Positions 1 through 2,496 of a stretch of 4,408 nucleotides of DNA are shown piece after piece; the stretch's first letter is position 1; every line of letters begins with the position of its first letter. The position numbers are program-made. Origin of the DNA: a virus (Duplodnaviria > Heunggongvirae > Uroviricota > Caudoviricetes); the IMG/VR virus record IMGVR_UViG_2700989487_000014, positions 1 through 4,408 of that record. One strand, written 5' to 3'.

Positions 1-2496
1 TCTGAGGCAGCACCTGGCACGGCTGGGACGGAAGTCGCTGTCGTTCTCAAAATCGGTGGAGCTGCATGACAAAGTCATCGGGCATTATCTGAACATAAAA
101 CACTATCAATAAGTTGGAGTCATTACCATGCATTTAAGTCGCTTGAAATTGCTATAAGCAGAGCATGTTGCGCCAGCATGATTAATACAGCATTTAATAC
201 AGAGCCGTGTTTATTGAGTCGGTATTCAGAGTCTGACCAGAAATTATTAATCTGGTGAAGTTTTTCCTCTGTCATTACGTCATGGTCGATTTCAATTTCT
301 ATTGATGCTTTCCAGTCGTAATCAATGATGTATTTTTTGATGTTTGACATCTGTTCATATCCTCACAGATAAAAAATCGCCCTCATCTTGGAGGGCAAAG
401 AAGATTTCCAATAATCAGAACAAGTCGGCTCCTGTTTAGTTACGAGCGACATTGCTCCGTGTATTCACTCGTTGGAATGAATACACAGCGCTGTGTTTAT
501 TCTGTTGTTTGCGTGAAAATGAAATCCGCCTGAGCGGGTTATGACCACTTTTTGTTTGGGTTTCGTTGGTGAGCGTGGTTTACAGGATTATTTGATATAC
601 CCCATAACTCTGACTCGCTTATCTCTACACGAGAGAAAGACCTGCTTTCTTTCAGTTCTTTTATAAACCTAGAACCTAAGATGACATCTATTGTACCAGA
701 AAGTTCTTGTAAAAGATCTTTGTTTTTTCTGAGGAAGAAAATATCTTCTTTATATTTAATTTTTACATAGAATTTATTCTGTATTTTTAATATATCAAAG
801 CATGGCAGATATCTATATCCCTCATATTTTCGCCACTGCTTAACAATTATAACATCTTTTTCATTTACTGCATTAATCAGCCCAAGACCAAGTACAGGTA
901 TGAATATTCTATTGTCTGCCGAAAGCGTACAATTATCACCACCAGGCAAATATGTATAAATCATGTCGGAATTTTTATACGCATCAACGAATGCACGTAA
1001 GAAGCGTACATATTTTTGCCATCCGTTTATACCGAATTTACCATATAAGTATTCTTTATTTGTTAGAAGAAAACTATTTGTATCAGGATCCTTATCTACA
1101 GACCTGTCGATAAGATCTCCAACTACGTTTACAAAGTCAAAGACAGAGTTTAATAAGAACAATTGTCTTTCAGTAGGGCGAATTTCAATTATGTAGCCAG
1201 GATGAAGACGATATTGCATCTGCTTACGAAGTATACCGAACGCTTGGGTCCGAGCATCTGAAAGCAACTTCTTGTCGCCATCGCCGTGAGCATTGTTTCT
1301 AATAAAACTGATATAATTTGCTAATTTTTCAGCCTCTTTTTTGTGTTTTTTTCGCTCTGATGCTGAGTCTATTGGTTTTGGTATGGACTTGTAATCAATC
1401 TTCTTCATTACGTACCTCATGCCAATGGAATGGATTCCCCTTTAACCTTTTGTCTTCCTTGACAAGTTATACCGAACTCACCTGGCTTGCTATACCAAAC
1501 TCGATGATTCTTGCGCTCAATACGTTGCAGGTTGCTTTCAATCTGTTCGTGGTATTCAGCCAGCACCGTAAGGTCTATCGGATTCAGTGCGCTTTCTACT
1601 CGTGATTTCGGTTTGCGATTCAGCGAGAGAATAGGGCGGTTAACTGGTTTAGCGCTTACCCCAACCAACAGGGGATTTGCTGCTTTCCATTGAGCCTGTT
1701 TCTCTGCGCGACGTTCGCGGCGGCGTGTTTGTGCATCCATCTGGATTCTCCTGTCAGTTAGCTTTGGTTGTGTGTGGGAGTCGTAGTCCTGAACGAAAAC
1801 ACCCCGCAATGGCACATTGGCAGCTAATCCGGATTCGCACTTCCGGCCAATGCTTCGTTTCGTATCACACACACCAAAGCCTTCTGCTTTGAATGCTGCC
1901 CTTCTTCAGGGCTTAATTTTTAAGAGCCTCACCTTCAATGGTGGTCAGTGCGTCCTGCTGATGGCTTAAAATTACAAGGAAGATTGTATGTTGTAAACAA
2001 GAAATATTGTAAAAAAGGGACGTGAAAAACAAACTCCATTGTTTTTAAACGGAAAATAGTTTGTTTTTTTGTTATCGAGATTGAGGTGGGGATTACTGAT
2101 TGCAGGTTCCGACTACATCACCAACAAAGGATTTGGTTGATGTAAGTTGTTGCATACCTGGGATGTTCATTACTTTGGAGTAAAGAGCTTTTTTGTCTGT
2201 AGTGATTGACCAAGTTTCAACGGTTATGCCTCCTCCAGACTGGTATTCTCCTACCATAGTGTTCGATGACAAAGCAGTGTATTTCATCTCTGGATAGACG
2301 CCAGAAACTGATTCATAAACTGATGATTTATCGCCATTTATTGTTACGTTGAAAACGGAATCTTCCGTGCTGTCTTTTGTAAACTCGTAACGATCGCCAT
2401 TCATTGCCCCGTACCCGTGCAGGTTTGTGACAATCCAGCATTCAGAATTGGCGCTGGTAGTTAAGAGTATTGAGAGTAGCGCCGCAATCCTGATCA

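Follow-up and report, generated by a model that had tools for sequence, protein, structure and literature searches.

In bacteriophage lambda, the stretch of the pL operon between ral and ea10 encodes an Hfq-dependent small RNA (sRNA), LPR1, renamed PreS, whose 3' end lies at the terminator tL2a (10.1101/2024.10.31.621285). On northern blots lambda PreS appears as an RNA of about 88 nucleotides (nt) and a processed form of about 68 nt; its production is confined to the lytic cycle, and it activates the translation of dnaN, represses alaS and supports phage DNA replication, and the same preprint describes the role of Ea10 as not fully understood (10.1101/2024.10.31.621285). The other described system that bears on the locus studied here is the Nun protein of HK022, whose C-terminal segment is extended and unfolded in the polymerase complex: in the electron cryo-microscopy structure, tail residues N97, H98, H100, R102, K106, K107 and W108 pass between the lid and the rudder of beta', where they touch the RNA, the template strand and the downstream DNA (PMC5386594). 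Here we analyse a stretch of 4,408 nt, called the window below, which corresponds to positions 1 to 4,408 of the IMG/VR virus record IMGVR_UViG_2700989487_000014. An initial annotation had set apart a 75-codon open reading frame (ORF) in this window and proposed that, together with a larger upstream gene and the terminator between the two, it forms a two-gene module. We find instead that the locus is, very probably, the ral/nun-to-ea10 stretch of a pL operon, with a truncated ea10, tL2a and PreS, and that the two ORFs are neighbours by synteny and not a functional pair.

The region thus turns out to be ordinary: the gene that IS1 interrupts and the terminator were both known, the sRNA has lately been described, and all three lie in an annotated phage genome. 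The features concerned are the following.

1-127, minus strand: terminal part of IS1, whose inverted repeat GGTAATGACTCC reads on the minus strand from 127
123-350, minus strand: 75-codon ORF with an ATG start, read as ea10 (DUF2528) codons 1-73 (350-130), a hybrid TGG (129-127) and TAA (125-123)
360-364, minus strand: predicted ea10 ribosome-binding site GAGGA, read from the sequence, 9 nt before the ATG; a ribosome-binding site is annotated at the same place in phage 434 (OL657226)
371-398, minus strand: intrinsic terminator assigned to tL2a, stem 398-391/384-377 (core GCCCTC/GAGGGC), loop 390-385, U-tract 376-371
371-457, minus strand: predicted PreS/LPR1 homologue, 87 nt; in lambda an Hfq-dependent sRNA (about 88 nt) whose 3' terminator is tL2a
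457-488, minus strand: 14-pair hairpin in the predicted fold of 545-365, common to lambda, HK022, Kapi1 and PA28
515-537, minus strand: small hairpin CCGC-UCAG-GCGG (537-526) with a U-rich tail, just past the stop of the 289-aa gene
539-1408, minus strand: gene of 289 amino acids (aa), 'Nun C-terminal peptide-containing protein' in the phage 434 record

Assignment of the 75-codon ORF to an ea10 gene cut by IS1

The ORF is present at 123-350 as claimed, with its ATG, and so is the GAGGA motif at 364-360, on which the sequence and the phage 434 annotation agree. However, it is not the orphan that it had been taken for: homology searches assign it to ea10, with a match to Pfam DUF2528 (PF10800) above the curated cut-off (83.2 bits for a cut-off of 22, E = 2.2e-23) and a match to phrog_646 at 3.6e-39. 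Both matches are partial, the first covering only profile positions 1-57 of 104, which is less than the whole domain, and the second only positions 1-74 of 122. The intact gene, which encodes 122 aa in loci L001 and L003, including phage 434, continues ...SSDLNAYGVVCEFDW... beyond this part. Note that Ea10 is named Ssb in some records.

Similarity to phage 434, to 434-type prophages and to other E. coli genomes breaks exactly at position 128, and positions 1-127 are 100% identical to stretches annotated as IS1 or IS1B-family transposase (top plasmid matches), with at least 5000 plasmid records matching this part at 99% identity or more. Codon 74, which is TAT in the intact gene, is replaced by a TGG that spans the junction, its first base coming from ea10 and the other two from IS1, and the TAA lies wholly within the IS1 inverted repeat; the stop codon is therefore not natural to the gene. 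The truncation removes 49 C-terminal residues, the acidic tail among them. Since IS1 cuts the gene after codon 73 and only part of the family profile is covered, the 75-codon ORF is best read as an IS1-truncated ea10 pseudogene, and the same insertion cuts through the pL operon. The junction between IS1 and ea10 was found in 0 of 5426 complete E. coli genomes, so the sequence may stem from a draft genome of E. coli or from Shigella.

tL2a and a PreS homologue in the 188-nt gap

The hairpin described at 379-384/391-396, with its run of six T residues, is confirmed, and a terminator scan lengthens its stem to 8 pairs (398-377), 5 of them G-C, with a loop of 6 followed by TTTTTT at 376-371. The region's terminator count (3, against 1.6 expected from shuffles) is unremarkable by itself, and we take tL2a as real because it is conserved in 329 phage records and because of the published work on tL2a. 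The site is 98% identical to lambda and occupies the same place upstream of ea10; it is annotated as 'terminator' in phage 434 and, at the homologous site of phage O276, as 'Transcription terminator tL2a'. A literature search on 'tL2a' returned unrelated papers only. Across lambda, HK022, Kapi1, PA28 and 434 the stem is constant and the loop variable; the loops (window 385-390; L005, L006, L007, L008) read CAAGAT in 434, CAGTGT in lambda, CGATGT in HK022 and CAATGT in Kapi1. The hairpin thus appears to be lambda tL2a, a real terminator within an N-antiterminated pL operon, so that, as had been proposed, expression of the downstream ORF should need N-modified polymerase. The reservation attached to that proposal, an unrecognised promoter in 400-538, finds no support, as no minus-strand promoter-like site was found in that interval.

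The spacing of about 190 bp is also correct, with 188 nt measured to the upstream stop codon (539), but the spacer is not empty: it carries what we identify as PreS. Lambda DNA from 33905 onward, which runs from the ral-ea10 intergenic region into ea10, is 98.4% identical to window 510-128. With the 5' end set at window 457 from the cloning primer P810 (GAGCAATGTCGCTCGTAACT) of the preprint (10.1101/2024.10.31.621285), 86 of the 89 positions compared (window 457-369; lambda from 34011 leftwards) are identical, and the three differences all fall within the terminator loop (AAGA vs AGTG context). The seed UUCUGAUUAUUGGAAAUCUUCUUU is that of lambda, the one used on dnaN and alaS, and no change is seen at M1 and M2, the sites whose mutation served to prove pairing in the preprint. 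The predicted fold (z = -4.0) has a hairpin at the 5' end, then the seed, which is single-stranded, and then the terminator. We conclude that 457-371 is in all likelihood a PreS homologue, whose expression in the 434-type prophage is predicted. The block 371-510 is conserved in HK022, Kapi1 and PA28, where the next gene is not ea10; because it is conserved even without ea10, the PreS/tL2a block can be regarded as a unit of its own.

Two further hairpins lie between PreS and the 289-aa gene. The 14-pair hairpin (488-457) ends exactly at the published 5' end of PreS and may be a processing signal. The small hairpin with its U-rich tail (537-515) is common with the 3' flank of HK022 nun, from which, judged by this identity, the sequence at 515-537 was inherited. 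At the same place in Kapi1 (L007, about 2045-2075), CCCAC-TTCG-GTGGG is followed by TTTTTT, with both arms changed relative to 434 and HK022, and in the distant homologue L010 an unrelated strong terminator follows the gene directly (3988-4014). Nun-tail genes, i.e. genes whose products end in a Nun-like peptide, are thus directly followed by their own hairpin and U-tract in the window, in Kapi1 and in L010. No Rfam family was found at gathering thresholds in the window, L010, L006 or L012.

By analogy with lambda, unmodified polymerase on pL transcripts would stop at tL2a, giving the Hfq-binding 3' end of PreS, and PreS would raise dnaN translation and aid phage DNA replication. N-modified polymerase would pass tL2a into ea10, cIII, kil, gam, bet and exo; in the window copy, such read-through would meet a dead ea10 frame and an operon severed by IS1.

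Distribution of the two genes and alternative explanations

Among the 5426 complete E. coli genomes, the ea10/PreS segment is present in 2244, the 289-aa gene in 93, and the two are contiguous in 76, which makes ea10/PreS about 24 times more widespread than the 289-aa gene. In phage records, the segment was found in 329-331 and the 289-aa gene in 2, where both are contiguous (both records being phage 434). In IMG/VR, the block formed by N, the 289-aa gene, PreS, ea10 and cIII is found in 30 of 31 close copies (96-100% identity), whereas neither PreS nor ea10 lies within 4 kb of the diverged homologues of the large gene (40-46% identity; 0 of the 6 loci L010, L050, L051, L052, L054 and L055). 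Linkage confined to nearly identical copies, together with its absence from the diverged loci, indicates the synteny of one 434-type lineage and no conserved partnership.

These distributions bear directly on the module proposed by the initial annotation, a toxin-antitoxin or effector-regulator pair made of the 289/293-aa protein and the small ORF, with a ratio set by the terminator. The two genes are indeed adjacent and on the same strand, and in 434-type prophages they nearly always occur together (the 76 E. coli genomes and the 30 of 31 close IMG/VR copies). However, that linkage holds only among copies 96-100% identical to each other, and every diverged homologue of the large gene is without ea10, which is itself preceded by a variety of other genes, among them ral in lambda and IS903/nun in O276, in over 300 phage records and some 2200 E. 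coli genomes. Moreover, the likeness to a toxin-antitoxin system finds no echo in the proteins, as searches of Pfam, PADLOC and NCBIfam gave no family of toxins, antitoxins or defence proteins for either of them, and the small ORF is truncated and separated from the large gene by 188 nt with an sRNA gene inside. In PADLOC and NCBIfam, none of the three ORFs searched gave an informative match. Such a module, to which we give hardly any credence, appears largely refuted by the co-occurrence data; we dropped it as a new two-gene module, its terminator and spacer corresponding to the known tL2a and PreS and its ORF to a truncated ea10. The alternative in which the truncated Ea10 fragment (73 + 1 residues) is still produced and retains a function or has acquired one is improbable. 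While its ribosome-binding site, start codon and DUF2528 profile positions 1-57 of 104 are intact and the upstream signals unchanged, it has lost 49 C-terminal residues including the acidic tail, its transcription would require polymerase from a repressed pL to read through tL2a, and a second insertion sequence (IS) in O fits the pattern of a decaying element. The junction is also not a spreading allele, as none of the 5426 complete E. coli genomes carries it.

The distribution also decides on a last alternative, in which PreS is a dedicated guide or partner RNA of the 289-aa protein, comparable to the omega RNA found just 3' of tnpB. What speaks for it is that the body of the protein resembles the WED/REC part of TnpB (see below) and that a structured sRNA begins about 80 nt past the stop of its gene. 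But PreS is conserved in lambda and in more than 300 phages without the 289-aa protein, is not next to any diverged homologue and, in lambda, works via Hfq on host mRNAs; this role for PreS is highly unlikely and was rejected on distribution. The preferred reading, that of syntenic neighbours in a pL operon, has points against it as well. The large gene is almost always followed by PreS and ea10 in 434-type copies (30 of 31), so that linkage within one lineage cannot by itself exclude an interaction. For this prophage, tL2a termination, PreS production and N function are predictions from the sequence, and the data on PreS come from lambda and a single preprint. Lastly, the window ends within IS1, and the rest of ea10 and the cIII-exo genes, if retained, would lie beyond it.

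A Nun-type C-terminal peptide on a probable TnpB-like domain

The unusual element of the region, and the lead of higher interest, is not the 75-codon ORF but its upstream neighbour. This gene had been reported to encode 293 aa; it is present, but a start at 1420 is unlikely, the most likely initiator being M5 at 1408, which gives 289 aa, according to PGAP and the phage 434 record. The gene is composite: after an AT-rich body (585-1408, 34% GC) come 15 last codons (539-584) that have their homologue in the 3' end of HK022 nun. In the DNA, this similarity continues into the flank of nun, with 94.7% identity over window 584-472, and the body is unrelated. Taken alone, this pattern could be a recombination scar. 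At the protein level, the C-terminal sequence VNHAHQRNPNKKWS agrees with Nun 96-109 at 14 of 14 residues (PDB 6alg_N, phrog_5632), and the matches to phrog_5632 and 6alg do not reach beyond the final 20-27 residues. The tail is retained in homologues of 68%, 47%, 42% and 37% identity, with V-N-H-A-H-x-R-x-x-x-K-K-W invariant, and the 434 and L010 tails differ by synonymous changes at 7 of 13 codons (V to W). The invariant residues match the seven Nun residues named above, and this invariance was seen in six homologues down to 37% identity. An AlphaFold model predicts the tail (247-289) to be disordered, in keeping with the unfolded C-terminal segment of Nun in the polymerase complex. A search with a 45-aa Nun-tail profile gave three Nun C-terminal fragments only.

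The predicted fold of the body best matches the WED-REC half of TnpB/Cas12, without RuvC. The order of its secondary structures is that of the WED-REC-WED half of TnpB, i.e. one strand, helices and then a sheet, with no RuvC half after it: the protein ends about 70 residues past the WED-like sheet, in the disordered tail. In the model, the RuvC domain with its catalytic D-E-D and the zinc ribbon are thus not present. An hhalign comparison with ISDra2 TnpB (the query being 100% identical to 8bf8_A) aligned the first strand and helix only, in register, with a marginal P = 0.036. None of 12 family members matched OrfB_IS605 or OrfB_Zn_ribbon in Pfam, and a profile search of PDB sequences with a broad family alignment gave nothing. 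We regard a TnpB-like fold of the modelled body as probable but not proven. A literature search found no link between Nun and TnpB and no phage 434 genome paper.

Shorter relatives of 213-248 aa (L013-L017) are without the N-terminal 70 residues and end in GGxxxxGKKR, with no Nun tail; the model of a short-form homologue (predicted local distance difference test, pLDDT, 54.7) was too poor to confirm the TnpB-like fold. The short forms with readable contigs lie on small plasmid-like ones; those of P0017 also encode a PF03090 replicase and, in one case, MazEF, and a secreted 108-aa repeat protein precedes the short form there, while P0013 occurs on a single contig too short to reveal its neighbours. 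The 108-aa ORF before these plasmid short forms was considered as the N-terminal extension of the long form and rejected, as it encodes the unrelated secreted repeat protein. A scan of genome contigs gave 43 pattern matches and no relative.

Position of the Nun-tail gene next to N

In the window the Nun-tail gene closely follows the gene of the antiterminator N, and similar arrangements recur among its homologues. The gene starts 1-8 nt past the stop of an N-family gene in the window (1408-1417), L012 (802-811), L050 (3999-4001) and L054 (3833-3839), and in L051 the called Nun-tail ORF overlaps the end of the immediately upstream N-family ORF; the scores of the upstream ORFs of L012, L050, L051 and L054 exceed the PF11438 or PF25694 cut-offs. 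In L010 and L052, the Nun-tail gene is the first after cI, which is the place of nun in HK022. Overall, among the five homologue lineages whose flanks are long enough to tell, four have an N gene 1-8 nt upstream, a spacing that suggests translational coupling with N. In PA28 (L008 1400-2045) and in Stx1a-converting phages (L009 1671-2045), the equivalent place after an N-like gene is taken by a full-length nun that overlaps the 3' end of this gene; in the PA28 annotation only a 45-aa fragment of this nun is called.

A tentative picture can be drawn from these observations. The 289-aa protein would combine a transposon-derived, RuvC-less TnpB WED/REC module with an RNA-polymerase-jamming Nun peptide and would arrest the complexes picked by its TnpB-like domain, from which N may protect those of the phage, so that N and this protein would be the real functional pair, acting in host shut-off or in the exclusion of competing phages. 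We consider this doubtful though possible; in particular, arrest by the Nun tail, the selection of complexes by the TnpB-like domain and protection by N are speculative.

Genomic context

Judged by similarity, the window is the immunity and early-left (pL) region of a lambdoid, 434-type prophage. In the pL direction, on the minus strand, the order is cI-434, hex, oL/pL, nutL boxB, N, the 289-aa gene, the 188-nt gap, the 75-codon ORF and the IS1 end. The features upstream of the 289-aa gene are as follows.

1417-1740, minus strand: antiterminator N, 107 aa, Pfam N36 at 1.8e-26
1897-1913, minus strand: nutL boxB hairpin GCCCTGAAGAAGGGC, from the phage 434 annotation (L003 5270-5286 mapped onto the window); the hairpin was also found in the window scan
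about 2093-2496, minus strand: hex, the ORF after cI; its phage 434 counterpart is annotated 'repressor protection protein'
2494-3126, minus strand: cI-434

Phage 434 (OL657226) is 100% identical to window 128-1420, and 434-type prophages in E. coli are 99.9% identical to window 128-4120. The same features are annotated in phage 434 (Ea10 homologue, terminator, ribosome-binding site, Nun-tail protein and N), and in this phage and in intact 434-type prophages ea10 is followed by cIII, kil, gam, bet and exo. The N gene, 91% identical to lambda N at the nucleotide level and likewise annotated as N in the phage 434 record, has its stop codon 8 nt upstream of the start of the 289-aa gene. The hex ORF (2093-2496, minus strand) has a signal-peptide-like N-terminus and matches phrog_2651; the phage 434 hex record notes that the start codon was wrongly inferred, and the PGAP version is shorter (103 aa).

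Replication gene O is broken at about 4121 by an IS3-family element, and E. coli O145:H28 RM12761 has an insertion at this very site. Window 4121-4408 matches the opposite end of the RM12761 IS, reversed (97%), which points to an inverted or independent copy. Because this second IS interrupts O, the prophage appears to be defective.

Comparison with known systems

The present analysis first of all corrects the view of this region, which is not worth pursuing as a toxin-antitoxin-like module. It also extends the recently described PreS to 434-type prophages, with an identical seed, and indicates that the PreS/tL2a block travels independently of ea10. What could matter more is the small family that joins a probable TnpB-like domain to a Nun arrest peptide, mostly beside N: if its tail works as in Nun, it would represent a second class of phage transcription-arrest factors with its own targeting and, if the likeness to TnpB is true, another TnpB-derived domain put to new use.

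The 289-aa protein differs from TnpB and Cas12 in that the RuvC and zinc-ribbon half is missing, the gene lies outside any transposon context and a guide RNA is not known for it. It also differs from TldR, a nuclease-dead TnpB that keeps an inactivated RuvC, since it has none. Its tail relates it to HK022 Nun, a transcription arrest and exclusion factor (PDB 6ALG), with which it has in common an identical tail, the same place in the pL operon and the 3' flanking DNA. It is nevertheless not a Nun orthologue, because it is without the N-terminal arginine-rich, boxB-binding motif and is much larger (289 aa against about 110, with 109-112 aa noted for Nun); there is no similarity beyond the tail, H93 and R94 of Nun are not conserved, and the 289-aa gene follows N, whereas HK022 is without N. 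The other elements of the locus are close to their lambda counterparts. The predicted PreS differs from lambda LPR1/PreS in its upstream neighbour, the Nun-tail gene in the window and ral in lambda. The window ea10 keeps only codons 1-73 of 122 and takes the end of its ORF from IS1, but is otherwise like lambda ea10 (DUF2528, phrog_646), with 98% nucleotide identity over the gene and its leader, the same ribosome-binding site and the same place after tL2a in the pL operon.

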